Of a DNA stretch of 44,520 bases, positions 621 to 41,397 are shown in pieces. Under the pieces are notes generated by a model. That model had not been told where the DNA came from and ran no database searches. It saw nothing but the letters and a program-made list of their open reading frames with translations. The stretch covers positions 1-44,520 of the forward strand of contig JBBAOD010000003.1 of assembly GCA_040401635.1 (NCBI GenBank), in the 5' to 3' direction. Both the position numbers and the translations under genes were made by a program. The stretch's first letter is position 1; the number at the start of each line of letters is the position of its first letter. The DNA is from Phycisphaerales bacterium (GTDB lineage Bacteria > Planctomycetota > Phycisphaerae > Phycisphaerales > SM1A02).

Positions 621-1255
621 ATCGCCGCCGAAATGCACGTGGATTCACGCTGTTGGAAGCGCTGATTGCTGTGGGCATGCTGATGTTGCTGCTCGGTGCG
701 CTGGCGATGTTTGTTGAGGATCTCACCCGTACTCGGCAATTCTCGGCGCGCACGGCAGCGCAGACTCGGTCAGCGGATGCCCTGTACAGCGTGCTTGAGG
801 CAGCATTGCAAACAGCAGTTGTTGATGGCGGTCCGCTGGGTTCGGGAGTCACTGGAACAGATCGGTCAGTGCGGGTTCTTTCGTCGCGGACCGATGCGGG
901 CAGCGGCAGCGTGCGCGAACTGGCGCGGGCCGCGTTTGCTGCGCTATCTGCAACAGAGATCGGTGAGTCGTCTGGAAACATCACCATCACTCGCGGCGGA
1001 TCTTCCAGCGTGCTTCCTGCCACGGTGCGCGCCATGCGCGTGCGCTACTGGACACAGGGTGGATGGGCGGATTCGTTCGACTCACTCTCCGCGGGTTCGC
1101 TGCCGCATGCAGTTGAAGTGGCGCTGTGGTTTGGAGTGGCGGCCGCTCAATCGGAGGAAGAGAACTTTGGAACGCCGGATCGGGTTCGAACGATCGCGGT
1201 TCCTGATGCAGCGGGCGCTGATGGCGCGAACTTCATACCGGAGGCTGGGCAGTGA
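617..1255 (+). CDS. Prepilin-type N-terminal cleavage/methylation domain protein, GspJ-like pseudopilin
   Basis: MNRRRNARG/FTLLEALIAVGMLMLLLGALAMF is a classic G-FTLLE prepilin peptidase motif with Glu+5. ATGA overlap at 617-620 and GTGA overlap at 1252-1255. Confidence 0.8.
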   Translation: MNRRRNARGFTLLEALIAVGMLMLLLGALAMFVEDLTRTRQFSARTAAQTRSADALYSVLEAALQTAVVDGGPLGSGVTGTDRSVRVLSSRTDAGSGSVRELARAAFAALSATEIGESSGNITITRGGSSSVLPATVRAMRVRYWTQGGWADSFDSLSAGSLPHAVEVALWFGVAAAQSEEENFGTPDRVRTIAVPDAAGADGANFIPEAGQ

Positions 1256-3351: not shown

Positions 3352-3357
3352 ATACTA

Positions 3358-23113: not shown

Positions 23114-24643
23114 GTGGATACGATGCGGCCAATGCATTCGGACCCCTCGATGCGACCTGCCACCACTCGCTCCACTGTGATTGCCCGCATTGCGGCCGTT
23201 ACTGCCGTCATCGCGGTTGCCTTTGCCGCCGCTTCGGGCGCGGAGGCGATGCAGTCGCCACCCGCCGTTGCGACCCCAGCCCCGACACAGGCGCCGGTCA
23301 CTGCCACGGCAGCGCTTCCGCGCATTCTGGTCTTCAGCCGCACCGCCGGTTTCCGGCACGCTTCCATTCCTGATGGCATTCGCGCAGTGACGGAACTTGG
23401 GGCGGGGCGTTGGACCGTGGATGCAACCGAAGACTCGTCCGTATTTACTGCCGCCAATTTAAAGAACTATCGCGCGGTTGTGTTCCTGTCCACCACTGGC
23501 GATGTGCTTGACGACGCGCAACAGAAGGCGTTTGAGCAGTACATCCACGCCGGTGGCGCGTGGGTTGGAGTGCACGCCGCATCGGATACCGAATACGACT
23601 GGCCGTGGTACGGCCGATTGGCGGGTGCGTGGTTTGTCGGACATCCAGCCGTCAATCAAGAGGCGACCGTCGTTGTTGAGGATCGGACGCATCCCAGTAC
23701 CCGCATGTTGCCCGCGGAGTGGAAGCGACTGGACGAGTGGTACGCATTCCGAACAAATCCACGCAGCACTGTGCATGTCTTGGCATCGCTTGATGAGAAG
23801 AGTTACAACCCAGGCAAGGCATCCATGGGTGGCGATCATCCAATCATGTGGTACCAAGACTTTGAGGGCGGGCGCGCTTGGTACACGGCCGGCGGGCACA
23901 CCAAGGAGAGTTACACCGAACCGCTCTTTCGGCAGCATCTGCGCGAGGGCATCGCATGGGCAGCAGGCATTGCGGATGCCAAGGCAGTTCCTGTTGCGGC
24001 GCCTGCCAAGGCTGGGGATGCAAAGGCTGGGGACGCAAAGGCTGGGAATGCCACGGCACCTGTGCCGGCTCCCAAGCCAGCCGCACAACTCATGCAGTCA
24101 ACGCGCGCACACAGCGTGCTTGCGGACGCCTCACCCATGCTGGCAGCGATTCCCACATGGCTTGCATTGGGCGGCGCATTCTTGGTGGCAGCGATCATCT
24201 TGGGCGCAAGCGGCCAGGGCGTCAAGGGTCCAGTACTGAACTGGGCATTCCCAGGGCTTGGGCACGTGGTGCTTGGACACCGCAAGCGCGGATTCTTAGC
24301 GATGGCGGCCATTCTGGGAATGTTCGGCTGCGGGCTTCTCATTGGCGGCATTGATGCCGTTGACAGTGTTGAGGACGCGCCGTGGTTCATTGCCCAAAGT
24401 GGCAACGGACCGATCGCCCTCGCCGCGGACTGGGCGAATCAGAACATTCTGAAGACCGGCAAGGTTGGGGAACTCTTGCCCGCGCCAGCGCCGCTTGATC
24501 CGCTGGGCCGCCCGCTGCCAGGTCAGCACACGGTGTCATCGTTTAAAAGCTTGGGTTCGGCCAATGAATTTGGAACGCTGTTCATTGCGCTTGGCGGCTT
24601 GATGAATTTCATTCTGATCATGGACATCAGTCGCCGCGATTGA
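23114..24643 (+). CDS. Secreted ThuA-domain protein fused to an AKAGD repeat linker and a C-terminal membrane domain
   Basis: Signal peptide ending AASGAEA. ThuA-like core LPRILVFSRTAGFRHASIPDGI...VFLSTTGDVL...GGAWVGVHAASDT...GDHPIMWYQDFEGGRAWYTAGGH. Three AKAGD copies at 24005-24049. TM segments with the PGLGHVVLGHRKRGF motif. GTG start; alternative ATG at 23123. Confidence 0.8.
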   Translation: MDTMRPMHSDPSMRPATTRSTVIARIAAVTAVIAVAFAAASGAEAMQSPPAVATPAPTQAPVTATAALPRILVFSRTAGFRHASIPDGIRAVTELGAGRWTVDATEDSSVFTAANLKNYRAVVFLSTTGDVLDDAQQKAFEQYIHAGGAWVGVHAASDTEYDWPWYGRLAGAWFVGHPAVNQEATVVVEDRTHPSTRMLPAEWKRLDEWYAFRTNPRSTVHVLASLDEKSYNPGKASMGGDHPIMWYQDFEGGRAWYTAGGHTKESYTEPLFRQHLREGIAWAAGIADAKAVPVAAPAKAGDAKAGDAKAGNATAPVPAPKPAAQLMQSTRAHSVLADASPMLAAIPTWLALGGAFLVAAIILGASGQGVKGPVLNWAFPGLGHVVLGHRKRGFLAMAAILGMFGCGLLIGGIDAVDSVEDAPWFIAQSGNGPIALAADWANQNILKTGKVGELLPAPAPLDPLGRPLPGQHTVSSFKSLGSANEFGTLFIALGGLMNFILIMDISRRD

Positions 24644-27561: not shown

Positions 27562-28677
27562 TTATGGAGTGATAGTGACGCGGCGGTAGAAGCCGTTGTT
27601 TTCTTGTGCAATCGCTTGCAGTGATTGCACATCGTTTTCGCTCGCGAACGCAATGGTGTTAATTTTTGTCAATAAACCCTTGTTTCCGGCGGCAATTTCA
27701 TCGCGGAGCATGCCGATGTCACTGCTGTCAAATTCACCGTCGGTCAACAGAAAGATCGCTTCTGGGTTCATTTGGAGTGCCATGCGCATGGAGTCCCATG
27801 TGCCACTTCCGCCCGCTGGGTCTGATTCATGTTGGGTGACCCAGCGAATCGCTGAATCACGATTCGCTGCAGTGGCAGCTAACCACTCGCCATTGGGCGG
27901 CATCGGTAGCGCATTGGTGTAGACCGTTCCCGACTTGTTTGGGCTTTCAACAAGTTTGGCCCCATTCGCGGGCGATACCCCGAACAGAATCACCGTGAAT
28001 TTGCAACCATCGCGGAGCGATTGAATGCTCTTGGCAAGTTCGGATTTGAGTAGTTTCTCGCGGCCATCTTCATTGCGCATGCTTGACGAGAAGTCCAAGA
28101 TGTAGACGATGCTCTTGGCATCAGTCGGAATCCCCATGAACTGTGTTCCGCCGCCCCCGCCTGCACCCGCACGACCTGCGCCGTCCTTGCCATCCTTGCG
28201 ACCAACAGCAGTCGCGGTCTGCGGAGGATCGATTGGATCATTGATATTCGGCAAAGTGAAGCCGAATTTCGGTAGTTCCTTGCTGTCACCACTCACCAAC
28301 GACTCGCCTTCGACGGCATTTGCAGTGGCGAGTGTGCCGGTGCGTTGACCGCGCGGTGCAGAGTCGGCGGTATCACCAACGGCACCATGGAGATTCCCGG
28401 AGGTACCGGCGCCTGGGCCGTCACCGGCAAGCGCACTGCCGCTGCCGACGCCCGCGCCGAAGCCGCTCCCTGAGCCTGTTCCGTAGCCGCCGCCAGCTGT
28501 TCCCGCAGCATCATCTCCGGGCGGATCGACCGGCGCTGCAAACAGAATTGCCGCGATCACCACACCAAGCGCCAGCACAAAGCAGCTAGCGATGGCAGCG
28601 ATCGCAGAGTTACGCTCGCGGCGGTCGCACGATGCGCCGGGGTGTGTTTGCCAGGGAAGCCAAGAGAGGAGTGACAT
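27562..28677 (-). CDS. Membrane-anchored periplasmic von Willebrand factor A (vWA) domain protein
   Basis: Short cytoplasmic N-terminus (CDRRERNS), TM AIAAIASCFVLALGVVIAAILFAA, Gly-rich linker, PKFGFTLP motif. The vWA domain has a MIDAS motif (VYILDFSSSM ... GTWDS ... IFLLTDGEFD). Confidence 0.85.
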   Translation of the reverse strand: MSLLSWLPWQTHPGASCDRRERNSAIAAIASCFVLALGVVIAAILFAAPVDPPGDDAAGTAGGGYGTGSGSGFGAGVGSGSALAGDGPGAGTSGNLHGAVGDTADSAPRGQRTGTLATANAVEGESLVSGDSKELPKFGFTLPNINDPIDPPQTATAVGRKDGKDGAGRAGAGGGGGTQFMGIPTDAKSIVYILDFSSSMRNEDGREKLLKSELAKSIQSLRDGCKFTVILFGVSPANGAKLVESPNKSGTVYTNALPMPPNGEWLAATAANRDSAIRWVTQHESDPAGGSGTWDSMRMALQMNPEAIFLLTDGEFDSSDIGMLRDEIAAGNKGLLTKINTIAFASENDVQSLQAIAQENNGFYRRVTITP

Positions 28678-28725: not shown

Positions 28726-29859
28726 TTACTTGATTTCAGTACGCATCGGCGGGGAACGATCGACCCGGATGATGAAGACTCGGGTGTTGGAAACGCGCAT
28801 CAGACCTCGCATGATCTTCATGAGTTCAGGTTGCTTTTCCTCTGCATCGGTAACGATGAATTCGATGTTCGGGCGCTTCTCGGTTCCGTGCTGCCGCTTC
28901 TTCATGTTGGCAATGACGAGTTGGTAGCCCGTTTCTGGAGAGTCTCCACCGCCATATGGCTCGACATCTAATACCTGCTGCACCATCCGCTGAATGTCTG
29001 TTGACTTCTTGGTCTTTAAGGTTGGTTTGATGATCACCTCGTTTGGCTCCCCCAAGAGGACATCACGAAAGGAAGTGACGGTGATCGAGCCGCCCTGCAA
29101 ACTATTGAAAATCTCAGCAATCACGCGGGCTACCGCGTCACGGGCGGGTGCCATGCTGCCAGTCGCGTCAAGATTGATACTGATTCGCGAGTCGGGCCAT
29201 GCTTGAACTACGTCGATGATCTGACCCTCGGTGGATCCTCCGCCGGCTGCTCCCGAACCGCCGCGCGTTGGGCGCCCGGTTGGCACACCGGGTGCTGCCA
29301 CACTGGGCGGTTTCGGCATGATCATCGGTGGTGGAGGTGGGGCATCAGGCTGCGTGAAGCCAAATTTCGGTGGTTCGATTTCTGGTCCGGCCGGCGCGAG
29401 TGCTACGGACTCTCCTTCTTCGGAATCACCTTCGGCCGCAGCCCCATCGGGGCTTCCGAGTGGCGGGGCTATTTCATCCGGACCGGCAGCGAGTTTTCCG
29501 CGCGTGCGGTCGTCTACCCCGGCTCCTGGGCCAGATCCATCAACACCGCTCCCAGTTCCACTGCCATTCCCGATACCTGCCCCGTCGCTGCGCCCGAGTC
29601 CGCCTCCTGATCCGCCACCACCGTATCCGCCACGGCTTCCAGCGAAGATCGCCGCTAGCACGACGCACAAACCCAACACAAAGGCGGCCACGATTCCAAG
29701 AATCGCGGACGCTCGCTCGCGTGGTTCGCACAGGGCTTCGTCCTCACCCGGTGTGTCGGAGTTCTCAGAATGAATCGCCACGGAATCAGCGTACGCCATG
29801 AACCCCCGAAGCCCAATGCCCCGTATTTCTCCTGCGGGTACCTTTTGACTTTGGACCAT
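28726..29859 (-). CDS. Membrane-anchored periplasmic vWA-like protein, paralogue of the downstream gene
   Basis: Same layout as the neighbour: CEPRERAS, TM AILGIVAAFVLGLCVVLAAIFAG, Gly-rich linker, PKFGFTQP motif. The vWA-like domain reads ISINLDATGSM ... YGGGDSPE ... EFIVTDAEE. An alternative start at 29799 (MAYAD) is possible. Confidence 0.75.
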   Translation of the reverse strand: MVQSQKVPAGEIRGIGLRGFMAYADSVAIHSENSDTPGEDEALCEPRERASAILGIVAAFVLGLCVVLAAIFAGSRGGYGGGGSGGGLGRSDGAGIGNGSGTGSGVDGSGPGAGVDDRTRGKLAAGPDEIAPPLGSPDGAAAEGDSEEGESVALAPAGPEIEPPKFGFTQPDAPPPPPMIMPKPPSVAAPGVPTGRPTRGGSGAAGGGSTEGQIIDVVQAWPDSRISINLDATGSMAPARDAVARVIAEIFNSLQGGSITVTSFRDVLLGEPNEVIIKPTLKTKKSTDIQRMVQQVLDVEPYGGGDSPETGYQLVIANMKKRQHGTEKRPNIEFIVTDAEEKQPELMKIMRGLMRVSNTRVFIIRVDRSPPMRTEIK

Positions 29860-29924: not shown

Positions 29925-31259
29925 TTGAAGGACACCACCGTGAGTAGGAAACTCAAATCCAGCGCCGTTTGCCCCCACTGCTGGCACCGATTCCGTCCGG
30001 ATCAAACGCTCTGGGTCGCTGCGCATCCTGAGTTGCTCGGCGATCGATTGCTCACGCCTGAAGATCCGGTGCGTTTCCTGCCGTCGCGCTTCACGCCAGC
30101 GGGCGAGGCGATCGACCCGTCTGGTTCCAAGACGCGCCGACTTGCATGCCCCAACTGTCACTTGGAGATTCCGCAACTGGTACTTGAGTGCCCGATGGTG
30201 ATCATGAGTTTGGCTGGCAGTCCATCAAGCGGTAAGAGCTATTTCTTGGCGAGCGCTATGTGGAAATTGCGCGAGGAACTCGCACGGCATTTCTCCGTAG
30301 CGTTTACGGACACGGATCCCGCGATGAACCGTGCAATCACCAACAACGAAGGTCAGCTCTTTCTCAACGAAGATCAGTCCGCGTCGGTTGCCATTGACAA
30401 GACGGAAATGGAAGGAGCGCAATACAACTCGGTGCAGTTTGATCCGGGTGTCGCCACCATGCTGGCGCATCCGTTCATCTTCACCGTGCGCCCTTCGCGC
30501 GATCATGTGAACGGACATGCACCGCATCGATTGACACAGCTATTTACGCTCTATGACAATGCTGGCGAGCACTTCTTTCCTGGCGCCGATACCGCGCGCG
30601 CGCCTGGAACGCAGCATCTAGCGAAGGCGCAGGTTCTGATGTTTGTCTTTGATCCGACGCAGGATGTTCGCTTTCGCCAGCGTCTTGCTGGTCTCAGCGG
30701 CGACCCACAATTGGCTCCGGGTGCAAAGACCACGCGCCAAGATCAATTGATTGTGGAAATGGCGCGCCGTGTGCGCATCCACGCAGGTCTTGCACCGCAG
30801 GATCGGGTTCCCAAGCCGCTGTTTGTCATTCTCTCCAAGAGCGACATTTGGGCCCCACTTCTGAAGGAAGAAGATGGAACACCAATGGACATCACCACGC
30901 CGCCCTACGCGCGCGAACGCGCCGGTCTGGGGCGAATGAGCATCAAGCGCGTCGATCGAACCAGTGATCGCATTCGTGCGTTGCTGTGTGAAGTAGCACC
31001 GGAACTCGTGTCCGCTGCCGAAGACGCGTTCGAGCGCGTCATCTTCATTCCAGTGAGCGCGATCGGAACGTCGCCGGTCCTGGATCCAGCGAGCGGTCTC
31101 CTCAAGGTTCCGGTAGCGCGCATCGCTCCGCGGTGGGTGACCGTTCCGTTCATCTACACACTTGCGCGTTGGTCGACGCACTTGGTCTCAAGCGACAAGA
31201 GCGAAGGCGACCCATCATTCGGAACACCGTCGGATTCCGCTGACATGGATCCATCGTGA
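29925..31259 (+). CDS. Zn-ribbon-fused TRAFAC-class P-loop GTPase
   Basis: Four-Cys ribbon CPHC...(58 aa)...CPNC. G1 is LAGSPSSGKS, G3 is LYDNAGE, G4 is ILSKSD and G5 is PVSAIG. TTG start at 29925, or GTG at 29940. Confidence 0.85.
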   Translation: MKDTTVSRKLKSSAVCPHCWHRFRPDQTLWVAAHPELLGDRLLTPEDPVRFLPSRFTPAGEAIDPSGSKTRRLACPNCHLEIPQLVLECPMVIMSLAGSPSSGKSYFLASAMWKLREELARHFSVAFTDTDPAMNRAITNNEGQLFLNEDQSASVAIDKTEMEGAQYNSVQFDPGVATMLAHPFIFTVRPSRDHVNGHAPHRLTQLFTLYDNAGEHFFPGADTARAPGTQHLAKAQVLMFVFDPTQDVRFRQRLAGLSGDPQLAPGAKTTRQDQLIVEMARRVRIHAGLAPQDRVPKPLFVILSKSDIWAPLLKEEDGTPMDITTPPYARERAGLGRMSIKRVDRTSDRIRALLCEVAPELVSAAEDAFERVIFIPVSAIGTSPVLDPASGLLKVPVARIAPRWVTVPFIYTLARWSTHLVSSDKSEGDPSFGTPSDSADMDPS

Positions 31260-31313: not shown

Positions 31314-33779
31314 ATGGCACTCGAACTCATCTACACATCTGCAGTACGCGGCCTCCGGGCTGGAACCAGCGGGTTCTGCACTGTGGCGATGACCAAGGGA
31401 TTGCCGCCGGCGTTGGTGCCGCGCCTGGAAGCGCTCGGCGGATATCGCACTGGTCCGTCGGGCAATGGCCCGAATGCGTATTGCTTCTGGCGTGTTGAGA
31501 CAGCGACGGGGATTGCGCATGTGCTTTCCATTGTTGGTCCTGCACCGCCGGACCACACGGCGCGTTCCAACAAGATCGCTACGTACTTGGTGCTCGCGCC
31601 GGATGAGTTGGTGCCCGCTGGACCCGCGTGGCTTCTTTCGCAACCCGCGCTTCTGCGTAGCACATGGAGCGGTGCGCCTGCTTGGATCGATGCTCCAGTG
31701 CGCGTGCCGACAACTCGTGATACCGGCCCGCGTCCATGCGCTGCATGGCAGGCAGCGAGTGGCGATGCGGGCTGGGCGGGCGTTCTGGCAAGTGCATTCC
31801 TTCGCGATCAAGCGCGGCCGATTCATGTGATTTACGGCGCCGCCATTGAGCCGCTGCCACTTGTTGAAGAAGCAATTCGACTCTTGCCGGAGTGGGCGCG
31901 TTGGCGCGCAACGTTCTCAACGTATTTCCTCCAACCAGTTGCTGGAACCCCGTGCGCGTGGCGATTCTGTCTTGATGGAACTCCAGCTACGGATGCTGCG
32001 CGGCAGTCCAAGGGGCTGGTCATTGACCTGACGCGCACCGCGGGGCCAGCGCCCGAATCACGATTCACACGTATGGCTCGGACGGGTATTGATGAGGAGG
32101 CGGTAGCGGCGCAAAGAGCGACGCGAGCAGCCGCGCGTGCCGCGGGAGCGGCTGCTGTTACCGGTGCCAGCGCTGCGCGGTCGAGCGATGCGCCCATTGA
32201 ATTGGAAATGGACTTTGCAGGAGATCAAGCCGGTACGCCGCGGCGCTTGGTGCGGGAGTTGGAATCTGAAGATCAAGGTGCGCCATCTGGCGAGCCAGCG
32301 CGCATGTCCATCAGTCCACCCATGTTGGCACTCGCCGCGGCTGGATTGACAGTGATACTTCTGGGTTTAATTTACCTGGTTAGTTTTACGACGGGCCAAA
32401 CTGCGGCACCAGCGGCACCAGCGATCCCCGCGATACCCGCGGCACCTGCGGTTGTCGAGAAGCCCAAGCGGGAGATGGAGCCGCTGAATTTGAAAGTGGA
32501 TGCTGCCGATGTCGGTACCACTCGGTCCGACGATGTCACAGCGGAGCCCGTCTCGAATGATGATGGAGCTCCGCAGGAGGAAGTCATAGAAGAAGCCCCG
32601 GGCATGCCAACGGATCCAGAAGCGTCGGCTTCGCCGCCTGAGCGCGTGCTCCCCGCTGTATTGCCTCCGCCCGTCGTGGCCCCAGTCGCGCCTGTCCCCA
32701 CGACACCAGTCATCACGCCGCTGGTATTGCCAACGATTGCGAAGTGGTCACCCACTTCCGCGTTCGAACGCGTCGCAACAGGCGCTGTGCAATTGCGGTT
32801 ACGTTTCGACGTTGGTGCAAAAAGTGGGTGGACTGTGAACTTTGTGCCTGCAAAGTCGCTCGCCGTGGCGGGTGTCAGTGTGCAGTCAAATGGTGGAATT
32901 GAATTCAGTGGGTCAGCCATGAGTGCGCGGGCTTCCATTAATGGAGCCGACCTCGTCATCGCTGGGTCCGCCGCTGGTCCTGTTCCTGAGGCGCTTCAGT
33001 TAGCGCTCCGTGATGCGAAGGATGTAAAGGACGCCAAGCTCGATCCGGTAGTCGTGCTGCAGCGGGCGCTTGAGCGTTGCACCGTTGAGGTGTTTGACAA
33101 GGGTGGCACATCGCTTGGGTTCGCACAGGTGCGGACAAAGTCAACGAAGTCGATCGGTATCGGAATGGAAAACAGCACAGCATTGGCAGATTTCGGCAAT
33201 AGCCGGCTCGATAGGCAAGTGACATCCCCTGCCGTTCCAGAGGCAATAACAGTTCGAGTTGATCCGATGCAAATTGAGAGCATGAACATCGCGGAAAGTT
33301 TGACTCTTTCTGTCAACCGTGCTGTGCAAAAGTCAGCAACGGTGTTCAGTGCAATGGCGCCGAGCGCTTCGGTTGTTGGGTTGCACATCACGGCATTGTC
33401 GAAGCAACAAGCCGAACTGAGCGCTCTCAAGAAGTCGTGCAATGTCGTGCTCGCGGTAGCGAAAGGCGGTACTCAGTCAGGTGGCTTTGAAGCAGACCTG
33501 CAGGCCGTACAGAACGCACTACTTCCGGAAGAGCAGAAGAAATTCCTCGTCGCTGGTGGTAAATCATCGCTGATATCAGACAGCAAGACCATGCGTGACA
33601 TGGTCGAATCAATCACTCCGCGTCTCGATAGTGAATTGAATAGCGTCAGTAAAAAACTGACGGAGGCCAACGCGGCGAGTAAGGCCAAGGCGAGCCCCGC
33701 GCAGTGGCGCATTCGCGTATCAAACGAGGACGGGATTGTGCTACTCGACTCCGCCATCACACCACGGGTGAGCAAATGA
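31314..33779 (+). CDS. Bitopic protein with a cytoplasmic GAP1-like (GTPase-associated) N-domain, one TM and a large periplasmic C-domain
   Basis: N-terminus MALELIYTSAVRGLRAGTSGFCTVAMTKGLP. TM MLALAAAGLTVILLGLIYLVSF near aa 335. Pro/Ala linker, then ~400 aa with no recognisable domain. Confidence 0.75.
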   Translation: MALELIYTSAVRGLRAGTSGFCTVAMTKGLPPALVPRLEALGGYRTGPSGNGPNAYCFWRVETATGIAHVLSIVGPAPPDHTARSNKIATYLVLAPDELVPAGPAWLLSQPALLRSTWSGAPAWIDAPVRVPTTRDTGPRPCAAWQAASGDAGWAGVLASAFLRDQARPIHVIYGAAIEPLPLVEEAIRLLPEWARWRATFSTYFLQPVAGTPCAWRFCLDGTPATDAARQSKGLVIDLTRTAGPAPESRFTRMARTGIDEEAVAAQRATRAAARAAGAAAVTGASAARSSDAPIELEMDFAGDQAGTPRRLVRELESEDQGAPSGEPARMSISPPMLALAAAGLTVILLGLIYLVSFTTGQTAAPAAPAIPAIPAAPAVVEKPKREMEPLNLKVDAADVGTTRSDDVTAEPVSNDDGAPQEEVIEEAPGMPTDPEASASPPERVLPAVLPPPVVAPVAPVPTTPVITPLVLPTIAKWSPTSAFERVATGAVQLRLRFDVGAKSGWTVNFVPAKSLAVAGVSVQSNGGIEFSGSAMSARASINGADLVIAGSAAGPVPEALQLALRDAKDVKDAKLDPVVVLQRALERCTVEVFDKGGTSLGFAQVRTKSTKSIGIGMENSTALADFGNSRLDRQVTSPAVPEAITVRVDPMQIESMNIAESLTLSVNRAVQKSATVFSAMAPSASVVGLHITALSKQQAELSALKKSCNVVLAVAKGGTQSGGFEADLQAVQNALLPEEQKKFLVAGGKSSLISDSKTMRDMVESITPRLDSELNSVSKKLTEANAASKAKASPAQWRIRVSNEDGIVLLDSAITPRVSK

Positions 33780-36673
33780 ACGCAGCCAAGCAAGAAATGT
33801 TCGAAACGGTTCGCTCGGTTGTCGCTGGAAGGCTTCGGGACGAAGCGCAAATCCGCGAGCTCGCGCATCGAATCTCGGAAGAATCAACCACGTTGCGCCG
33901 CCGCCTGGATCGTGCGGTTGGTTACGCCCGCGCCGGTCTTCGATTGGAAGCATGCGCGGAGGCGGAAGCGGAGCCCTCGGTGTTTGAACTCGCCGCAGCG
34001 TTTGACTCCGATGTCATGCGGCAGTGGCGGACGCTTTGCTCCAAGAACAAGTTGCCGCTGCAAGATGAAATTGCCAGTGACGCCATCGCAGAGATTGAAG
34101 AGGCAATCGCGCTTACTGCGCCGCTTCGCAGCAGACTTGCCCGGATGCGGCGGCTGGTACTTTCTGATGCATCTGCATGGAATAAGCTTGAAATACTGCG
34201 CGAATTGGTGTCACGCGACAGCGACAATCCGGCATGGCAAGAAGATCGCGCCGCTCTTGAGCCAGTGACCGCGAATGAGCTTGGCGATCGATTTGAGGCC
34301 GCCTTGGAGAAGGGCGCTCTTGACGACGCAGAGCTTTCCGTCACGCGGCTTGAAGATGGGAACTGGCATTGGTCGGGCGCAGCAAAGGTAGCCGCGCAGT
34401 TACGTGCACGGCTTAATCGCGCACTTGCCACACGAACAGCACTCGAAGCGCGGGCTGTCATCGCACTGCTCGATGAAGAGTGGGCTGCGGAGAATGAGTC
34501 GGGGGCACAGGCGGCGCTGGAATCATGGCGCGACCTTGAGCAGCGCATGCTCTCGTACGGCAGCGAAATGCCGGGAGATCTGCTTACGCGCGTGGATGAA
34601 GCCGAGGCGTGGCTCTCTGCTCGCCAGTCAGATGCAGCGGCGCACCGCGAAAATATTGACCGGGTTGCGGCGCTGGAACGGCTCGTACATGATGACGCTG
34701 TGACACTTCCCGGATTGCGTAAGACGCTTCGATCTGCGGAGCAGACCGTGGCGGGAGTCCCGGATGATCTGCGCGCGAGCGCTGAGCGCAAGATTGATTC
34801 CTTCGAACGTGCAGCACGAATGAAACGCTTGGCCTTGATTGCGGCGGTGGTGTTGGTTCTAATTGCTGGATCAGTGGGCACCGTCTATGTCTTGCGCCAG
34901 TCGGAGGAACTGAAGCGGATCGATGACATCGCCGCTGCGATTACCAGCAATGTTGACGCCGGCCGGCTTGTGGAGGCAGATCAACAGCTTGCGGAGGCAG
35001 AGAAAGAGCCCGCCGTTGCTGGGTCGCCGACGATTGCCGCAGCACGATCAAAGCTCACAGTAGCTCGTGCCGCCATCGCAGAGAAGCATCAGAAGTTCAC
35101 AAGCCTGATGGCGGAGGCTGGCGCCCCAGATTCTGAATCCGCCAAGCCTGATCGCATTGAGGAAGCAAAGCAATTTGCTCAGGGTGAGGAAGAGCAAGCG
35201 ATGGTTGCTAGCTGGATTCGTACACACGGCAATGCAACGGGCACCCGCCGCACCGATCGCATGCGCGAGGGAATGGCCCGCGCCAAAGCCACAACACGAG
35301 AGATCACAGCGGCTCAGCCAACCGGTGACGCATCCTGGGATGGAACATTCACTGCGTGGGAAAGTGCACTTGCTGATGTTCAGCGCCAGTATGGCGAGTT
35401 TGACGAAGTGACTCAAGAAGTCCGTGCGGGTCGTGCGAGTTTGATGGCGCAGCGCACAAAGACAGACACTGCGCGAGTAGAAACTGGCCGTGTCGGCAAA
35501 CTCGGTGGCCTTGGAGGTGCCGCAACTTCGCCACAGAAACTTGTGGACGCGTTGGCGGCATACATCAACGCACACGATGATTCGGCAGAAGCCAAAGACT
35601 TTAAGGCAGCCAAGGTCGCGCTTCCGACGTGGGAGGCAGTGACTGCGTGGTCCGCGGTTCAGCCGCGCCCCTCCGTATTACTTGCAGATCGACCGCAGGC
35701 AGAACGCGATGCGGTCGCCGCAGCAATTGATACGTATGTTCACGAATATCCATCCAGTCCGTACGGGGCCGAGTGCGAAGCGCTCGCGCCACTACTTGTT
35801 GCGGCGCCCGGATGGCGTGCAGCCCTCACGGAAAAACTAGAAAGTATGGAGGAGTTGACCTACTGGATGATCGAACGCAAAGACGGCTCGCGCTGGTACT
35901 GCAAAGCTGACCCACGATCATCTCCATTGCAAACGCAGGACGGTGTGGCCTTTAAGAGCGTCATGGTCTATCAGGGCAAGTCCAAGAAGACGGCGTTCGA
36001 GCGATTTGAGCAATTGCAGTTGAAGACAGAGGGGCCATCGCCACAAACGGTGTTTGGCAAGCAGTTGGCTGAGCTTATTGCAGACGATGAAAAATCAGTA
36101 AACGACATCGATGGAGCGTTCGACGCAATGACGGCGTTGCGCGAGAATGAAACGATCGATGGAGCCTTAGCCGCGCAATTGATGCAGGGATTGCTCGAGT
36201 CAATGGCGCCGCAAATGCCCGCAGTGATCCGTCCGCAGATAGAGGCGGCAGTCAAGCGCATTGCCAAAGAGAAGCCAGATGCCATTGATTGGATCAATCC
36301 GCGCGACGCAGACGCCCGCACTCGAAGCCGAGCTGCCCGTGCGGCAATGCGTGAGGCTGTACAACCAGAACTGTGGCGTAAGGCGTACGTGTCAGCAATG
36401 GCATCGGCATGCGCTCCGCTTGCAGTGGTGTACGAGCCTGCCGGTGTCTTTGTGAAATCTGCTGGTAAAGACGTATTTCTCTCAAATAAAAGCACGGTGG
36501 CTCCGGCGAATACGACACTGTGGATCGCCGAGCCGCCGATCGGCAGCAACCTTGGCATGATGATCAAACTGGGAACAGTGAAGCAGGGCGGGGTGGTTGA
36601 GTTTGATTCAGCATCTACGACAGTGACGCCGGGCAACATGGTCTTCACCATCAAACGCGGGGGCAAACCGTGA
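33776..36673 (+). CDS. Bitopic protein with a long cytoplasmic alpha-helical/coiled-coil region, one TM and a ~570-aa periplasmic domain
   Basis: Start at MNAAKQ (ATGA overlap with the upstream stop at 33776-33779). TM LALIAAVVLVLIAGSVGTVYVL. GTGA overlap with the downstream gene. No family recognised. Confidence 0.75.
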   Translation: MNAAKQEMFETVRSVVAGRLRDEAQIRELAHRISEESTTLRRRLDRAVGYARAGLRLEACAEAEAEPSVFELAAAFDSDVMRQWRTLCSKNKLPLQDEIASDAIAEIEEAIALTAPLRSRLARMRRLVLSDASAWNKLEILRELVSRDSDNPAWQEDRAALEPVTANELGDRFEAALEKGALDDAELSVTRLEDGNWHWSGAAKVAAQLRARLNRALATRTALEARAVIALLDEEWAAENESGAQAALESWRDLEQRMLSYGSEMPGDLLTRVDEAEAWLSARQSDAAAHRENIDRVAALERLVHDDAVTLPGLRKTLRSAEQTVAGVPDDLRASAERKIDSFERAARMKRLALIAAVVLVLIAGSVGTVYVLRQSEELKRIDDIAAAITSNVDAGRLVEADQQLAEAEKEPAVAGSPTIAAARSKLTVARAAIAEKHQKFTSLMAEAGAPDSESAKPDRIEEAKQFAQGEEEQAMVASWIRTHGNATGTRRTDRMREGMARAKATTREITAAQPTGDASWDGTFTAWESALADVQRQYGEFDEVTQEVRAGRASLMAQRTKTDTARVETGRVGKLGGLGGAATSPQKLVDALAAYINAHDDSAEAKDFKAAKVALPTWEAVTAWSAVQPRPSVLLADRPQAERDAVAAAIDTYVHEYPSSPYGAECEALAPLLVAAPGWRAALTEKLESMEELTYWMIERKDGSRWYCKADPRSSPLQTQDGVAFKSVMVYQGKSKKTAFERFEQLQLKTEGPSPQTVFGKQLAELIADDEKSVNDIDGAFDAMTALRENETIDGALAAQLMQGLLESMAPQMPAVIRPQIEAAVKRIAKEKPDAIDWINPRDADARTRSRAARAAMREAVQPELWRKAYVSAMASACAPLAVVYEPAGVFVKSAGKDVFLSNKSTVAPANTTLWIAEPPIGSNLGMMIKLGTVKQGGVVEFDSASTTVTPGNMVFTIKRGGKP

Positions 36674-37815
36674 CAGACGATTCCGAGTTTGATGACTTTG
36701 ACGGCCTCGATGCGGGAGGGCCCTCCGGTGCTTCCAAGCCCGGCCACGATGACCACGGTCGCTCGGCTACGGGACCCTGGTTTGTCCGATTCGCTGGAAG
36801 GCGCACCGGACCATTCGATGTGGAACGCCTGCGCATTTTGGCACGGCGCGGCGCACTCTCTCGCGTCCACGCGCTGAGTGTCGATGGCAAAGTGTGGTCC
36901 GCAGCCACCACGGTGCGAGCAGTCTTCAATGCAGACGGGTCCGTCGTTGCGTCGGGCGTGCGCGCGGTGGAGCTCGAAGAAGACCGGCCGGATTTCGGCG
37001 ATGAACTTCCCGGCACGGCGCCGACGGAATTCCCCCAGTTCACCTCGCGACGATTCATGGGCAGCGCTTTCGTTCGCCCGGTGGTGATCTGCGCACTCAT
37101 TCTTGCGACCATCATGTTGGCCTTGCCGACGTCGCGCGACGACGCAGGCGAACTTGCATGGTGGTGGCACGAGGGTGCATTGGGTATCGCCGTCCGCGGC
37201 CTGTGTGCGTTCGCGGTTCTGGGTGGTTGGGTAGTGGCGTTCCTTCCACCAGAGCCTGCCCGCGCTGCTTCAGTGTCTGCAGTCGCAGCAGTCCTTGCCG
37301 CAGCAGGCGCGTTGGCGCTGGCCCCGTGGGCGCCTTGGGCGCTGGTGATTGCACTTCTTGTGCCAATCGCTGCGCTCCTGGTTGCGCTCGACGCTGCGGG
37401 TTCTCCCGGGATACGCCCGATGGGAATTGTTGCTGTTTCGACGGCAGTCCTGATGGGTGTGGCATGCATTACCCTCGGCGTCTTCTGGTATTCACCATGG
37501 ACGCTCGCAGGAATGATTCTTGGAACAGTTGGCGCTGGCGGACTCGGTTGGGCCGGCGTGTCTTCGATACGGCACAAGGGACCAAGTGCCAAAGGAGTCT
37601 TCTCGAGTGGAATCATCGCTGCCACCGGATCCATGGCGTGCATCTTTGCGGCAGCATTTGCTGGGTTAAACAGCACAACACCGATGGTGGGTGCGCAGGG
37701 CGCCGTTTCTGCGTGCCTGGTCCTTGCCTTCTCAGCGCTCTCTTGGGCAGCCGTGCACGAGGCGGTTGAGAGTTCACACCTCCTACGCGGAACAGAAATC
37801 AACGAAAGCGCCTGA
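36670..37815 (+). CDS. GYF_2-domain protein fused to a polytopic membrane domain
   Basis: GPWFVRFAGRRTGPFDVERLRILARRGALSRVHALSVDGKVWSAATTV matches the bacterial GYF_2 pattern. About 6-7 hydrophobic helices follow. Confidence 0.75.
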   Translation: MTDDSEFDDFDGLDAGGPSGASKPGHDDHGRSATGPWFVRFAGRRTGPFDVERLRILARRGALSRVHALSVDGKVWSAATTVRAVFNADGSVVASGVRAVELEEDRPDFGDELPGTAPTEFPQFTSRRFMGSAFVRPVVICALILATIMLALPTSRDDAGELAWWWHEGALGIAVRGLCAFAVLGGWVVAFLPPEPARAASVSAVAAVLAAAGALALAPWAPWALVIALLVPIAALLVALDAAGSPGIRPMGIVAVSTAVLMGVACITLGVFWYSPWTLAGMILGTVGAGGLGWAGVSSIRHKGPSAKGVFSSGIIAATGSMACIFAAAFAGLNSTTPMVGAQGAVSACLVLAFSALSWAAVHEAVESSHLLRGTEINESA

Positions 37816-37845: not shown

Positions 37846-38715
37846 ATGGCACAGCCAACTCAACCCGCCACAACCGTTACCACGCAACCGAAGCTCGATG
37901 CACGCGCCGGCGACATTGAATGCATGATCGGATTCTCGTCCGGCCGCTACACGGTGGCATCCGCACCGCTGTGGCTTGGTGTGGCAGCAGTCATGACCAT
38001 TCTGGTCGCACTCATCTTGGTGATTGTTGCACCCAACAGTTACTTGTTACTCATGATGAATCGTTGTTGGACCAATTGGGCGGTGGTGTTCTTTTCGTGG
38101 TGGTGCCTCGGCATTCTCTTCGCAAAGTGGATCAAGACCAGTATTCAACTGCGTGCGCTCCGCGCCGTGGACATTGTGCCGCGCCGCGGCGATTTCATCC
38201 TGAGTCCTGGTACTTCCGGCGACGTCTTGCGCCGCATCAAGGCGGTCGCGGAGCGCCCCAAGGATTTCCTGCTCTTTCGTCGAATCGATATGGCGCTGTC
38301 CAACCTTGGCAATATTGGAGAAGTGCGTGATGTTGGCGCGGTTCTTGAAAGTCAAGCGGATTCCGACGGGTCAAGCGTGGACTCGAGTTACACAGTCATT
38401 CGCTCGCTCATCTGGACCATTCCGATCCTTGGCTTCATTGGCACCGTCGTTGGTCTATCGCAGGCGATCGGTTCATTCACCGACGTTCTGACGCAGACTG
38501 GTAGTGATGCAGGCAGCATCAAGAGCAAACTCGGACCAGTCGTTGGTGGATTGGCTACTGCCTTTGAGACAACGCTTGTTGCACTCGTCGCCGCCGTCAT
38601 CATCCAGCTTCTTTCCACTTGGGTGTACAAGCGCGAAGAGGCGTTGCTCGACGGCATTACTGACTTCACCACTGAAAATGTGCTTTCGCGCCTGAAACTC
38701 ACCGATTGGCAGTGA
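37846..38715 (+). CDS. MotA/TolQ/ExbB-family proton channel subunit
   Basis: Two N-terminal plus two C-terminal TMs. Signature IWTIPILGFIGTVVGLSQAI and LGPVVGGLATAFETTLVALVAAVIIQLL. GGAG SD 8 nt upstream. Confidence 0.9.
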   Translation: MAQPTQPATTVTTQPKLDARAGDIECMIGFSSGRYTVASAPLWLGVAAVMTILVALILVIVAPNSYLLLMMNRCWTNWAVVFFSWWCLGILFAKWIKTSIQLRALRAVDIVPRRGDFILSPGTSGDVLRRIKAVAERPKDFLLFRRIDMALSNLGNIGEVRDVGAVLESQADSDGSSVDSSYTVIRSLIWTIPILGFIGTVVGLSQAIGSFTDVLTQTGSDAGSIKSKLGPVVGGLATAFETTLVALVAAVIIQLLSTWVYKREEALLDGITDFTTENVLSRLKLTDWQ

Positions 38716-38718
38716 CCC

Positions 38719-39600
38719 ATGGGACGACGCAAGAAGCGCGAAGAGGCTCCGCTGAGCCTGTTTTCCTTCCAAGACATCATGGCTTGCCTCACCGGCATCC
38801 TGATTCTGGTGGCGCTGCTCATTGCTATGGATGGACTGACGGACGAGATGGAGGCAACGCCCGGCAAGAGTGGCGCGCCGAATCCAGAGGTCGCAGCAGC
38901 GCGCGTGCCGGTACTGCGCGAACAGATTGCAATCTTGCAGCGCTCGATCGACGACCGTAAAGGCGGCCGCGATGTAACGAAGGCCGAAGTGGATCTTCTT
39001 GATTACAGCATCAAAGACAAGGCGATGTTGGTAGAGCGAGCGCGTAAGCGCCTGGCGGATGCTGATGCAGAAATGAAGCGCATCACTGAGGAGCAAGCGG
39101 CGGCAACTCAGCAGATTGAAGAACTTCGGGAGCGTATTGCTACTGCGAAGCGCTCTGCAGAGGCGCAAGTGTTGCGTGAGCGCGTGAAGTTCCGTCCAGG
39201 AATGAAGTACACAAAGGCGCCGGTATTCGTCGAACCAATGGCGACCGGAGTAGTGCTTGGCGAACTGGATGCAACTCGCACGCCAGTGCGTATTGCAGAC
39301 CTCAAAGATCCGAACGCCGATGCGCGCATTGTTGGCGCGCTCGCTAAGCGACTTCCTGATACCTCGTACATCGTGTTCGTCGTGCATGAGGATGCCATTC
39401 CGCGCTTTGAAACACTTCGTAATGCCTTGATTCGCCGTGGCTATGAGGTGGGCTGGCAATTGTGGGACGGCGCCACTGGCGGATTCCTGGATGGCGCCTC
39501 CGAATCCACGGGCCCGGTGCCGTTGACGCTGCCAGCGGTCGCCGACAAGCCGAGCGAGGCTGTGAAGTCAGGCAAGTCTCCCGCCGGAGGTGCACCATGA
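38719..39600 (+). CDS. Elongated ExbD/TolR-like stator partner with coiled-coil insert (293 aa)
   Basis: N-terminus MGRRKKREEAPLSLFSFQDIMACLTGILILVALLIAM: basic tail plus a TM with the conserved Asp. ~100-aa coiled coil. ExbD-like C-domain TSYIVFVVHEDAIPRFETLRNALIRRGYEVGWQL. Starts 3 nt after the MotA-like stop. Confidence 0.75.
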   Translation: MGRRKKREEAPLSLFSFQDIMACLTGILILVALLIAMDGLTDEMEATPGKSGAPNPEVAAARVPVLREQIAILQRSIDDRKGGRDVTKAEVDLLDYSIKDKAMLVERARKRLADADAEMKRITEEQAAATQQIEELRERIATAKRSAEAQVLRERVKFRPGMKYTKAPVFVEPMATGVVLGELDATRTPVRIADLKDPNADARIVGALAKRLPDTSYIVFVVHEDAIPRFETLRNALIRRGYEVGWQLWDGATGGFLDGASESTGPVPLTLPAVADKPSEAVKSGKSPAGGAP

Positions 39601-40415
39601 GTGCAGGCGGTCGACGTCGTCGGCGGGGCGGCCGCAAGAGTTCATCCCTTGCGGGTGATCCCTTGGATTTGTTCTTGGATGCCATTACCAATGCGCTTGG
39701 CGTCGTTATGTTCATTCTGCTGATGGTGGTGCTCTTTGGCCGGGCGAGTGATTCACAGTCAGATGCCTCGGCTCCAAGTGCAGCAGAGGTTCGCGAAGCG
39801 CGTGACCTTGAAGACCAACGCCAGCAACTGCAAGCCAAACTCGACGCACTGCCGCCCGCAGGCGACCCCGAGTTGAACGCCCGCTGGAATGCAGCCAACA
39901 AAGCGTTTCAGAAGTTAGAAGATGAATTAGTCGAACTTCTGAGCGAAGCCCAGCGCCGCGAAGCGGACGCGTCTGCCGCCGCCGCCAAACTTGCAGAGTC
40001 GCGCAAGGTGCTTGAGCCACTCACCGCGGAGGCATCGAAGAAATCAGAAAGCGCCACTCCGCCGAGTGGTTTCGTCCGTGTCAGCCGCTTCCAGCAGGAT
40101 CAGCGAAAATCGGTCATCCTGCTTCTCTCGGCAGGCAAGCTTTCGCGATTCCGCGCCACTGCAGAAACCAAGGAAATCAGTGCTCCCGCGAGCGGATTTG
40201 CGGTGACCGATGCGGTCAGTGCCGCCGAGGGCGTTAGCCGGGCGCTCGATGGGTTCCAGCCCGCCACTTACCGCGTCGAATTGCTGGTTTGGGAGGGTTC
40301 GTTCGCGCCGGGCAAGATGGTTGAGCAGGCACTCCTTGACTTGGGGTTCGATTCGAATCCCCTCCCTGTTCGTGCGGGCACGTCTGTTCAGTCCGGAACC
40401 GGCGGCGTGCAGTAG
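39597..40415 (+). CDS. Second elongated ExbD/TolR-like protein with coiled coil (272 aa)
   Basis: Start at MSAGGRRRRRGGRK (ATGA overlap at 39597-39600). DPLDLFLDAITNALGVVMFILLMVVLFG is a TM with Asp. Coiled coil, then C-domain YRVELLVWEGSFAPGKMVEQALLDLGFD. Confidence 0.7.
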   Translation: MSAGGRRRRRGGRKSSSLAGDPLDLFLDAITNALGVVMFILLMVVLFGRASDSQSDASAPSAAEVREARDLEDQRQQLQAKLDALPPAGDPELNARWNAANKAFQKLEDELVELLSEAQRREADASAAAAKLAESRKVLEPLTAEASKKSESATPPSGFVRVSRFQQDQRKSVILLLSAGKLSRFRATAETKEISAPASGFAVTDAVSAAEGVSRALDGFQPATYRVELLVWEGSFAPGKMVEQALLDLGFDSNPLPVRAGTSVQSGTGGVQ

Positions 40416-40425
40416 CGTCTGCAGC

Positions 40426-41397
40426 ATGCGCCTGTGCTCCCTTCTGTACCTTCCCTTGCTCGTCATCATGGTTGGCTGCGGCAAGCCCATTGTGGTGCAC
40501 GCCGTCACGGAGTCATCGCTCGATCCCATTGCAGACGTGCGCGTCTACCGACATCGCTTCGGGTTCTTCAATTTCTTTCCGGGCACAAAGTTTGTTCAGA
40601 CTGGACCAGACGGCCGCGCAGAAGTCAGTGTTGGTTCTGCCAATACCAATCTCACCATGCTGCGCGCCGGATTTGAGCCAGTCATCTTTGGCGTCTTTGA
40701 AACGCCATCAGTTGCTATCGCGCCGGATGTTGGCGGCTATGACCATGTGGTGATGTTCAAGGACATCAAGTCTGCCCCGAAGAACGAATACCAAGTGAAA
40801 CTGCGCCCGGTGCGTCGGGAGCCGATGCAACTCACCGTGCTCGACTCCGCAACGAACGCGCCGATCAGTGGCGCGGAAGTCTTTGGCGCAACATTCCTGT
40901 ATCTGCCACAGCCGGGCCTGGAGGCCGACTGGGGATTCCCACCACTGCAAGTTGCAAAGACTGACGCTTCCGGCAAAGTCACCATCGACCAGATTTCCGG
41001 CTTTCGCAACAGCATCACTATTCGACTTGTTGGGTACCAGAACGCCGTCATTGCCTTTGATGGACGAACAATCACTGGCCCGCGCGCCGTTGATGTTCCG
41101 TTTCGCAAATTGCAGTCCAAACAGATTGACTTCCTGGTGATTGATGCCAAGACCAAGGCGCCGGTGCAGGGCGCGGAAGTACGGCTGGGCGAATCACGCG
41201 ATGGATTGCCGCCGAACCCGAATGGTTGGACGAAAGTCGTCGGGGCGGATGGGCGCACCGGGCCGATGCCGGTGGCAGACATGTCACCGTTTCTCATCAG
41301 CGTGACCAGTAGCAACTACCAAGAGTGGCGAGGGGCGCCAGTATGGCGGGCGCTGACTGCGGGGCAGACCAAGAAGCTGGAGTTGCAGCGGAAGTAA
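40426..41397 (+). CDS. Lipoprotein with about 3 carboxypeptidase-regulatory-like (Ig/beta-sandwich) repeats
   Basis: Lipobox MRLCSLLYLPLLVIMVG/CGK. Repeated IVVHAVTESSLDPIADVRVY, LTVLDSATNAPISGAEVFG and FLVIDAKTKAPVQGAEVRLGE. Starts 10 nt after the upstream stop. Confidence 0.7.
   Translation: MRLCSLLYLPLLVIMVGCGKPIVVHAVTESSLDPIADVRVYRHRFGFFNFFPGTKFVQTGPDGRAEVSVGSANTNLTMLRAGFEPVIFGVFETPSVAIAPDVGGYDHVVMFKDIKSAPKNEYQVKLRPVRREPMQLTVLDSATNAPISGAEVFGATFLYLPQPGLEADWGFPPLQVAKTDASGKVTIDQISGFRNSITIRLVGYQNAVIAFDGRTITGPRAVDVPFRKLQSKQIDFLVIDAKTKAPVQGAEVRLGESRDGLPPNPNGWTKVVGADGRTGPMPVADMSPFLISVTSSNYQEWRGAPVWRALTAGQTKKLELQRK

Follow-up and report, generated by a model that had tools for sequence, protein, structure and literature searches.

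Three consecutive genes of a planctomycete operon probably encode an ion-driven motor of the MotAB/ExbBD/TolQR kind (5:2) that has an unusual axle and forms a fixed module of a DO-GTPase2/GAP1-N2 system. The operon lies on a 44,520-nt stretch of DNA (hereafter the window), namely positions 1-44,520 of the forward strand of contig JBBAOD010000003.1 from a Phycisphaerales bacterium (GCA_040401635.1). The three genes, all on the + strand, encode a channel protein of the MotA/TolQ/ExbB family (the A subunit; 289 amino acids (aa), 37846..38715) and two paralogous B-type subunits, termed P2 (293 aa, 38719..39600) and P3 (272 aa counted from the ATG, 39597..40415). The proposal builds on the family and pore residues of the A subunit, on the paralogy, topology, invariant aspartates and coiled coil of P2 and P3, and on the conservation of the operon. 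An initial annotation of this DNA had described the same triad as a MotA/ExbB-type channel with two elongated ExbD/TolR-like partners; the three open reading frames (ORFs) are indeed found at these positions, and the peptides quoted in it (PILGFIGTVVGL, ATAFETTLVALV, FQDIMACLTGIL, LDAITNALGVV and the stretch beginning RKRLADADAEMK) are all present. The DO-GTPase2/GAP1-N2 context was absent from that annotation, and it changes what the motor most likely serves.

The A subunit matches the Pfam model MotA_ExbB (PF01618) with an E-value of 2.1e-9 (37.6 bits, against a cutoff of 22.9), and four transmembrane (TM) segments were delineated by hydropathy (residues 35-72, 78-96, 183-206 and 232-262), which agrees with the 2+2 layout proposed initially. 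The two TM pairs are separated by a loop of ~90 residues and basic residues follow TM2; the N-terminus, the loop and the 33-residue C-terminal tail are therefore predicted to be cytoplasmic, as in MotA. In an alignment of 12 sequences, including Escherichia coli MotA, ExbB and TolQ as well as an acidobacterial ExbB, residues P193, G196, V201, G203, A239, T243 and A250 are invariant; at T200 the one exception among the 12 is E. coli MotA, with an alanine. More specifically, T200 and T243 align with the threonine of the ExbB GTVWG motif and with the threonine of the last TM helix of ExbB; we take these positions to be those of T148/T181 in ExbB and T145/T178 in TolQ, which face the ExbD/TolR aspartate. 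The family search returned 1370 relatives of the A subunit, with PF01618 present in all the homologues listed, and the protein carries the JGI label ‘biopolymer transport protein ExbB/TolQ’. Characterised A subunits share only 16-21% identity with it. Judged by its sequence, the A subunit is a true member of the MotA/TolQ/ExbB family that stands outside every characterised subfamily.

One feature of the A subunit has no counterpart in MotA, ExbB or TolQ. This is the N-terminal motif LDxxxGDxEC(M)xG..GR(Y/F)T (aa 17-35, 37894-37950), which is cytoplasmic, strongly conserved and preceded by a variable Pro-rich tail. A partner protein in the cytoplasm might dock there.

Both downstream proteins have the bitopic architecture expected of B-type motor subunits. 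According to the AlphaFold2 models (pLDDT of 85.8 for P2 and 79.9 for P3, from which the helix boundaries were taken), P2 consists of a basic tail, a TM helix (14-44), two further helices (56-81 and 88-154), an alpha/beta domain (167-248) with a GWQLW motif, and a disordered tail, while P3 comprises an Arg-rich tail, a TM helix (22-50), helices 62-84 and 91-152, and an alpha/beta domain (171-267) ending in GGVQ. The pLDDT reaches 98 in the long helix, and the linker that follows the TM helix is of low confidence. The turn between the short helix and the long one is conserved, reading GGxDVT in P2 and PPAGDP, with an invariant D90, in P3.

For both partners the initial annotation had claimed a basic tail and, after it, a TM helix bearing a conserved aspartate, and this claim proved robust. 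The FSFQD19 segment of P2 is identical in 44/44 orthologues, and across 59 family representatives, with identities as low as ~20%, F15, F17, Q18 and D19 do not vary; D28 of P3 (LFLDA) is kept in 43/43 orthologues and also in distant members at 24-28% identity. Loss of these aspartates among orthologues, which the initial annotation had named beforehand as an observation that would speak against it, was not seen. In both models the aspartate sits 4-6 residues into the helix from the cytoplasmic side, and inspection of the sequences shows no acidic TM residue in any other protein of the cluster.

The heptad-rich segment noted in each partner is equally well supported, by the long helices of the models and by their periodicity. 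Specifically, the family-averaged hydrophobicity of the helices peaks at exactly 3.50 residues, the value of a coiled coil, and not at 3.6. Relative to the spectral mean, the power of this peak is at least ~4-fold in the first, short helix of each partner and ~9-14-fold in the second, long helix. The heptad-periodic helices total ~90 residues per partner, and the long helices of 62-67 residues correspond to ~10 nm. Following the positive-inside rule, the helices are predicted to be periplasmic.

The gross architecture of P2 and P3, with a short cytoplasmic tail, one TM helix, a periplasmic coiled coil, an alpha/beta domain and two paralogues side by side, is also that of PilN and PilO, and a pilus/type II secretion system (T2SS)-like cluster with a giant secretin is located in the same window. 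It could thus be argued that P2 and P3 are PilN/PilO- or GspL/GspM-like scaffolds that merely adjoin an ExbB-like gene. This is highly improbable. Neither Pfam nor the top 50 Foldseek results contain a PilN, PilO or GspM match for P2 or P3, and it is because these folds are absent from the Foldseek results that the idea was rejected. Furthermore, the order of elements in the C-terminal domain differs from the ferredoxin-like alpha-beta-beta repeat of PilO, the invariant buried TM aspartate is a hallmark of B-type motor subunits, and the two genes are 22 kb away from the secretin cluster and always directly follow the MotA-like gene, bar a single related locus (L052) where a gene for a 298-aa protein is interposed.

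P2 and P3 are, on profile comparison, paralogues: hhalign aligns them over 222 columns with a probability of 97.3% and an E-value of 2e-11, and cross-matches between their hidden Markov models (HMMs) in distant systems reach E-values of 1e-9 to 1e-12. Together with their constant co-occurrence, this paralogy gives an arrangement of one A subunit and two different B-type subunits, as in AglRQS. The family is large. A HMMER search with P2 of 1.84 billion representatives clustered at 50% identity retrieved 587 relatives at E<=1e-3 and 86 at E<=1e-10, and most of the relatives listed are 245-290 aa long and matched end to end. Nearly all the P3 orthologues looked up are named ‘hypothetical protein’, and the few exceptions carry apparently spurious names.

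The triad forms the tail of an operon with translational coupling, in which, in order and on the same strand, genes for a DO-GTPase2-type GTPase, a GAP1 protein, a bitopic protein of ~965 aa (p965), a GYF/TM-rich protein, the A subunit, P2, P3 and a lipoprotein follow each other with stops and starts that overlap or nearly abut. The start of P3 overlaps the stop of P2 as ATGA, and the same 4-nt overlap is found in 16/17 other loci that were tabulated; only 3 nt separate the stop of the A subunit from the start of P2, and a further ATGA joins the stop of GAP1 to the start of the p965 gene. The GTPase (29925..31259, +) has an N-terminal CxxC...CxxC zinc ribbon and the P-loop GSPSSGKS, and its match to the Pfam model DO-GTPase2 lies just under threshold (E 1.6e-5, 25.1 bits against a cutoff of 27). 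The GAP1 protein (31314..33779, +) matches GAP1-N2 (E 1.3e-16) and GAP1-M (E 2.3e-14) in Pfam, and continues with a TM helix, a Pro-rich linker and a fast-evolving periplasmic C-terminal half. It is followed by p965 (33776..36673, +), an ORF product with a helical cytoplasmic half, one TM helix and a large periplasmic half, in which no known domain was matched, and by a 381-aa GYF-domain protein (36670..37815, +; Pfam GYF_2, E 0.007) with a TM-rich C-terminal half. Downstream of P3 is the 323-aa lipoprotein (40426..41397, +), which has a signal peptide ending ...LLVIMVGC with a lipobox visible in the sequence, and a CarboxypepD_reg-like beta-sandwich (Pfam E 3e-6, under the cutoff); it may serve as a partner in the periplasm or at the outer membrane. 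Divergent from the operon are the genes of two tandem bitopic vWA paralogues (28726-29859 and 27562-28677, both on the - strand; Pfam VWA_4 E 4e-9 and VWA_3 E 7e-9), each with a cytoplasmic N-terminal tail, one TM helix, a Gly/Ser/Pro-rich linker and the vWA domain. As had been stated initially, the cluster lacks OmpA-like, TonB and TolA/Pal domains: Pfam and NCBIfam scans detected no OmpA, MotB, TonB, TolA or Pal domain in any of its proteins.

The window has a G+C content of ~59%, and its relatives are freshwater Phycisphaerales/Planctomycetota metagenome-assembled genomes. A scan of GTDB genomes provided a set of 46 related Planctomycetota loci. P2 and P3 are both present in 42/42 loci with enough downstream DNA, the GTPase and p965 in 26/26 loci with enough upstream DNA, and a GAP1 match in 24 of these 26 (loci L011 and L012 are the exceptions). 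Synteny holds down to identities of 56% for the A subunit and 27-30% for P2/P3. A vWA gene is found upstream in many related loci, and adjoins P2/P3-like genes in L052, L136 and L140. In close relatives the operon keeps the chromosomal neighbours asd-apaG-trpC, whereas in distant relatives these neighbours are lost and the operon is retained, which argues for a functional linkage among its genes.

Contigs of distant P2-family representatives carry the same parts, in some cases in a permuted order. In L050/L051 the order is FHA/DO-GTPase2, GAP1-N2, a 1020-aa protein, GYF, MotA_ExbB, a P2-trypsin fusion and a P3-like protein; L052, where the available stretch starts inside GAP1, has GAP1-N2/M, proteins of 469 and 991 aa, GYF, MotA_ExbB, the 298-aa protein, P2-like, P3-like and vWA; and L139 has an FHA protein, GAP1-N2, a 968-aa protein, MotA_ExbB, P2-like, P3-like and a GYF+PrsW protease. 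Four short contigs (L136, L137, L138 and one more) carry MotA_ExbB, P2-like and P3-like genes, the last incomplete in L137, with vWA next in L136, and L140 carries vWA, P2-like and P3-like genes. P2 and P3 are accordingly found together also in L050, L052, L136, L138, L139 and L140, a gene for a 968-1020-aa protein occupies the position of p965 in L050, L052 and L139, and homologues of the GYF protein in L052 and L139 have GYF_2 matches. Among these distant versions, the trypsin domain is C-terminal on the P2-like protein P0259 (L050, 10001-11590) and the GYF-PrsW fusion spans 10179-11408 of L139; these fusions suggest a proteolytic output.

Two further observations concern GAP1. Its periplasmic half (~32415-33776) is the fastest-evolving part of the operon, with 73-80% amino acid identity to close relatives, against 88-99% for the neighbouring genes, and the blastn alignment breaks there. 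An extra ORF of ~320 aa with no Pfam match is inserted between GAP1 and the p965 gene in L001, L003, L004, L007 and L028. The fast half and the optional ORF hint at a diversifying sensor cassette.

Taken as a working model, a ring of A subunits would surround one P2 and one P3, in a 5:1:1 stoichiometry, and D19 and D28 would accept ions beside the conserved Thr, Pro and Gly residues of the ring. Beyond the membrane, P2 and P3 would pair through their ~65-residue heptad helices (~10 nm), which carry small alpha/beta heads, so as to form a parallel stalk in the periplasm that itself lacks any domain of the peptidoglycan-binding or TonB type. The stoichiometry, the ion-driven rotation, the parallel stalk and the paired heads are all modelled by analogy with MotAB, ExbBD, TolQR and the predicted AglR5-AglQ-AglS. 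The stalk may contact the lipoprotein, the vWA proteins or the periplasmic half of GAP1 or of p965, and could energise or move such periplasmic partners. On the cytoplasmic side, the N-terminal motif or the 90-residue loop of the A subunit might, speculatively, contact the GYF domain, the GTPase or GAP1-N2/M; alternatively, in a Zorya-like manner, the rotating A-ring could signal events at the envelope to the GTPase and GAP1 in the cytoplasm. Every other part of the system (GAP1, p965, the GYF/TM-rich protein, the vWA proteins and the lipoprotein) has both a cytoplasmic and a periplasmic portion. Since the motor is embedded in a membrane GTPase system, it most likely couples the proton-motive force (PMF) to a GTPase-controlled transaction between periplasm and cytoplasm. 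More tentatively, with a confidence somewhat short of even, we propose that P2 and P3 represent a large unannotated class of B subunits, whose heteromeric, coiled-coil-extended axle is the mechanical arm of DO-GTPase/GAP1-N2 systems.

A number of points weigh against the motor proposed here. One is that sequence homology of P2 and P3 to ExbD, TolR or MotB cannot be demonstrated. The alignment to ExbD and MotB models suggested in the initial annotation came out negative: with the limit relaxed to E<=10, 0/36 orthologues (18 P2 and 18 P3) match PF02472 or a model of MotB or OmpA. As a positive control, the two canonical ExbD proteins of locus L047 match PF02472 at E 7e-27 and 3e-19; that locus (9869-12765) is a canonical acidobacterial ExbB-ExbD-ExbD cluster, followed by a gene for a TPR protein. 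Scans of P2 and P3 against Pfam, NCBIfam and PADLOC produced spurious coiled-coil matches only, and searches of the PDB with single sequences and profiles returned tropomyosin, SMC and designed helical proteins only. An hhalign comparison with a profile of four ExbD/TolR sequences did align P2 164-246 with ExbD 57-133 in a colinear fashion (P 0.0098). With a larger profile (145 ExbD sequences from a metagenome scan, of which 74 are non-redundant) the register was near-identical (ExbD 60-133), but the E-value of 0.24 was non-significant, and an ExbD HMM searched against the P2/P3 family gave a best E-value of 0.019, no better than reversed-sequence controls at 0.068. Because the larger profile weakened the signal and the HMM did no better than the reversed sequences, ExbD homology was rejected as not demonstrated, and membership of the ExbD family, which also lacks any PF02472 match, was dropped.

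The modelled C-terminal domains (~80-100 residues) follow the order beta-beta-beta-alpha-beta-alpha-beta, which can be read as that of ExbD; the models, however, retrieve nothing from Foldseek at E<=1e-3, and uS11, YqgF and integrase-type (RNase-H-like) folds rank ahead of TolR (5by4), which comes 18th for P2 (E 5.9e-3, TMt 0.46) and falls outside the top 50 for P3. On these models, the resemblance of the domain to TolR appears weak and not specific. What holds of the description ‘ExbD/TolR-like’ is therefore gene position, topology and the aspartate; no sequence signal of the ExbD family was detected. P2 and P3 hold the role of B subunits by their position, their N-in bitopic topology and their TM aspartate, ExbD homology is possible, and the fitting label is ‘B-type subunits of unassigned family’.

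The remaining points of this kind concern the assembly and its context. The stoichiometry and the pairing of P2 with P3 are inferred. An apparent single-chain fusion of P2 and P3 (P0133, 596 aa, L049 450-2240) was set aside as Rosetta-stone evidence, as its topology is inconsistent: in such a chain P3 would have the opposite orientation, unless the membrane is traversed by the linker PWPLVIPASVATVARV, which is weakly hydrophobic. The fusion is supported by one 2.3-kb contig only, and may therefore be a frameshift or assembly artefact. The lipoprotein is found in 26 loci and is missing from most of the more distant group (L025-L041, all but L038). Finally, the stable position beside asd-apaG-trpC in many genomes is atypical of mobile defence islands, and the role of GAP1-N2 systems as ‘conflict systems’ is itself only a prediction (PMC7159879).

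The genes of the triad might instead belong to a divergent but standard Ton/Tol energiser that powers a TonB or TolA encoded elsewhere, with the GTPase neighbourhood being incidental. Two ExbD paralogues downstream of an ExbB gene are commonly seen, as in L047, the JGI label of the A subunit points the same way, and the search for tonB was confined to the 44.5-kb window. Within that window, however, domain scans detected no TonB, TolA or Pal. Real ExbD proteins are easily matched by ExbD models, whereas P2 and P3 are not, and they are twice the size; the GTPase/GAP1/p965 genes are kept in 26/26 loci (with the two GAP1 exceptions given above) and on distant contigs with a rearranged order, and the overlapping stop and start codons along the operon speak against an incidental neighbourhood. 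We regard this explanation as very unlikely.

A different question is what the motor would be for. It could serve as the sensing or effector arm of a system against invaders, much like Zorya, in which the stalk would keep watch on the envelope and, upon a perturbation, ion flow would rotate the A-ring, thereby activating the DO-GTPase/GAP1 switch, the proteases or the vWA proteins. Such a role, with membrane-proximal sensing, has been predicted for GAP1-N2/DO-GTPase systems (PMC7159879), the fast-evolving periplasmic half of GAP1 and the optional gene beside it are in line with it, as are the protease fusions of relatives (P2-trypsin and GYF-PrsW), and a precedent exists in ZorAB, the motor of an anti-phage defence system (PMC11946911). 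The A subunit even gives weak PADLOC matches to ZorA, but these are at ~E 1e-3 and confined to the shared TM3-TM4 core. Membership of Zorya itself was rejected, as the ZorA matches are partial (E 8e-4 to 5e-2, residues 179-283) and accompanied by no other Zor protein: ZorB, ZorC and ZorD are all lacking, and the A subunit ends 33 residues after TM4, unlike the long-tailed ZorA. The stable genomic position beside housekeeping genes also counts against an anti-invader function, and no phage-related evidence was found. Overall, this function seems rather unlikely, and it would in any case be a sub-case of the motor proposed above instead of an alternative structure.

The same parts can also be read as a GTPase-gated trans-envelope force transducer for housekeeping purposes (adhesion, surface translocation, secretion or envelope maintenance), as an analogue of the Agl-Glt machinery, with which the system shares a parts list of a TolQ/MotA-like ring, two TolR-like subunits, a GYF protein, a zinc ribbon, a GTPase, FHA (the FHA domains occur in the homologues of L050 and L139) and vWA. 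The locus is vertically inherited in a stable chromosomal position and the system is very abundant in freshwater Phycisphaerales, both of which would suit a housekeeping function. The resemblance, however, appears thematic and not homologous, with no Glt homologues detected, and the hypervariability of GAP1 suits the sensing of a changing ligand better than housekeeping. A force transducer of this type is unlikely in our judgement.

Elsewhere in the window, a giant secretin of 3256 aa (5945-15715, +) has 26 Secretin_N repeats before its Secretin C-domain (Pfam E 5e-271). Upstream of it (617-1255 and 1252-5948) are a pseudopilin-like gene (N_methyl, T2SSJ) and three ORFs of unknown function, with overlapping stops and starts, and together these genes look like a giant-secretin pilus/T2SS-like cluster. 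A further ORF (23114-24643, +) fuses ThuA to DUF6677 (Pfam E 3e-77 and 4e-16), an unusual pairing that is unrelated to the motor.

With ExbB-ExbD and TolQ-TolR the triad shares the Pfam family of the A subunit and its pore Thr, Pro and Gly residues, B genes directly downstream, N-in bitopic B subunits with an aspartate near the cytoplasmic end of the TM helix and no OmpA domain, and the order of secondary structure elements in the C-terminal domain. It differs from them in its A subunit, which has four TM segments like MotA where theirs have three; in P2 and P3, which are ~2 times longer, contain ~90 residues of coiled coil, match no ExbD model and are two obligate paralogues; and in its embedding in a GTPase system, without TonB, TolA or Pal in the window. 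MotA-MotB and PomA-PomB, in turn, also have a four-TM A subunit, in which a large cytoplasmic loop joins TM2 to TM3, and a B-subunit TM aspartate in the context xxD(I/F)M(A/T)xL, whereas here there is no OmpA-like peptidoglycan-binding domain, no match to the plug helix and no flagellar genes, and identity to E. coli MotA is 17%.

ZorA-ZorB is likewise a 5:2 stator-type motor in a (predicted) defence setting that uses a long coiled coil as its transmission (PMC11946911), the stoichiometry of the present triad being inferred. In Zorya, however, it is the A subunit that bears the coiled coil, as a cytoplasmic tail, and ZorB binds peptidoglycan, whereas here the coiled coil would be periplasmic, is carried by the B subunits and comes with no peptidoglycan-binding domain. 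In Myxococcus, AglR works with a predicted AglQ/AglS heterodimer under the control of the MglA GTPase and of the GYF/zinc-ribbon protein GltJ (PMC11761067). One TolQ/MotA-like ring with two different TolR-like subunits is common to this AglR-AglQ-AglS motor (with GltJ, GltG, MglA and CglB) and the present triad, and both are associated with a GTPase, a zinc ribbon, an FHA domain, a vWA protein and a membrane protein that has a GYF domain (PMC11761067). AglQ and AglS are nevertheless short and TolR-sized, the GTPase here is a DO-GTPase with GAP1 and not MglA/MglB, and no Glt proteins were found; the likeness is one of parts list only.

There is also a correspondence with the GTPase-centric systems of the GAP1-N2 type defined by Kaur, Burroughs, Iyer and Aravind in 2020, which include a planctomycete version with a GYF and TM-rich partner (PMC7159879). 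Shared with these are GAP1-N2 and GAP1-M, a zinc-ribbon DO-GTPase2, the GYF/TM-rich partner, vWA and membrane association (PMC7159879). Indeed, GAP1-N2/GAP1-M beside a DO-GTPase is found in the window and in L050, while L139 has GAP1-N2 beside an FHA protein, and the planctomycete GYF-TM/protease variant recurs as GYF_2 with a TM-rich half in the window, as GYF_2 in L052 and as GYF_2+PrsW in L139. The text, the legends and one supplementary file of that paper make no mention of MotA, ExbB, TolQ or ExbD (labels within its figures lie outside this comparison), and a literature search, which did not extend to figure images, found no described motor triad or MotA/ExbB link to GAP1-N2/DO-GTPase systems. 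The motor triad is an addition to the GAP1-N2 system as described in PMC7159879, and its fixed association with the GTPase/GAP1 switch offers, for the predicted ‘conflict systems’ of the GAP1-N2 type, a concrete energy source and output that can be tested.

The wider interest of the system lies in its axle and in its distribution. The P2/P3 family is large (587 clusters at 50% identity), is matched by no domain model, brings its own coiled-coil stalk and always comes as two paralogues. The system is very common in the abundant freshwater Phycisphaerales, and its function therefore likely matters for the ecology of these uncultured bacteria. Motors of the 5:2 stator type drive flagella, TonB/Tol transport, gliding, type IX secretion and Zorya defence, and each new coupling of such motors has shown another way to turn ion flow into work. 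If the motor proposed here is real, GAP1-N2 systems would be PMF-driven, GTPase-gated trans-envelope machines, and would represent a third recruitment of stators beside Zorya and Agl-Glt.

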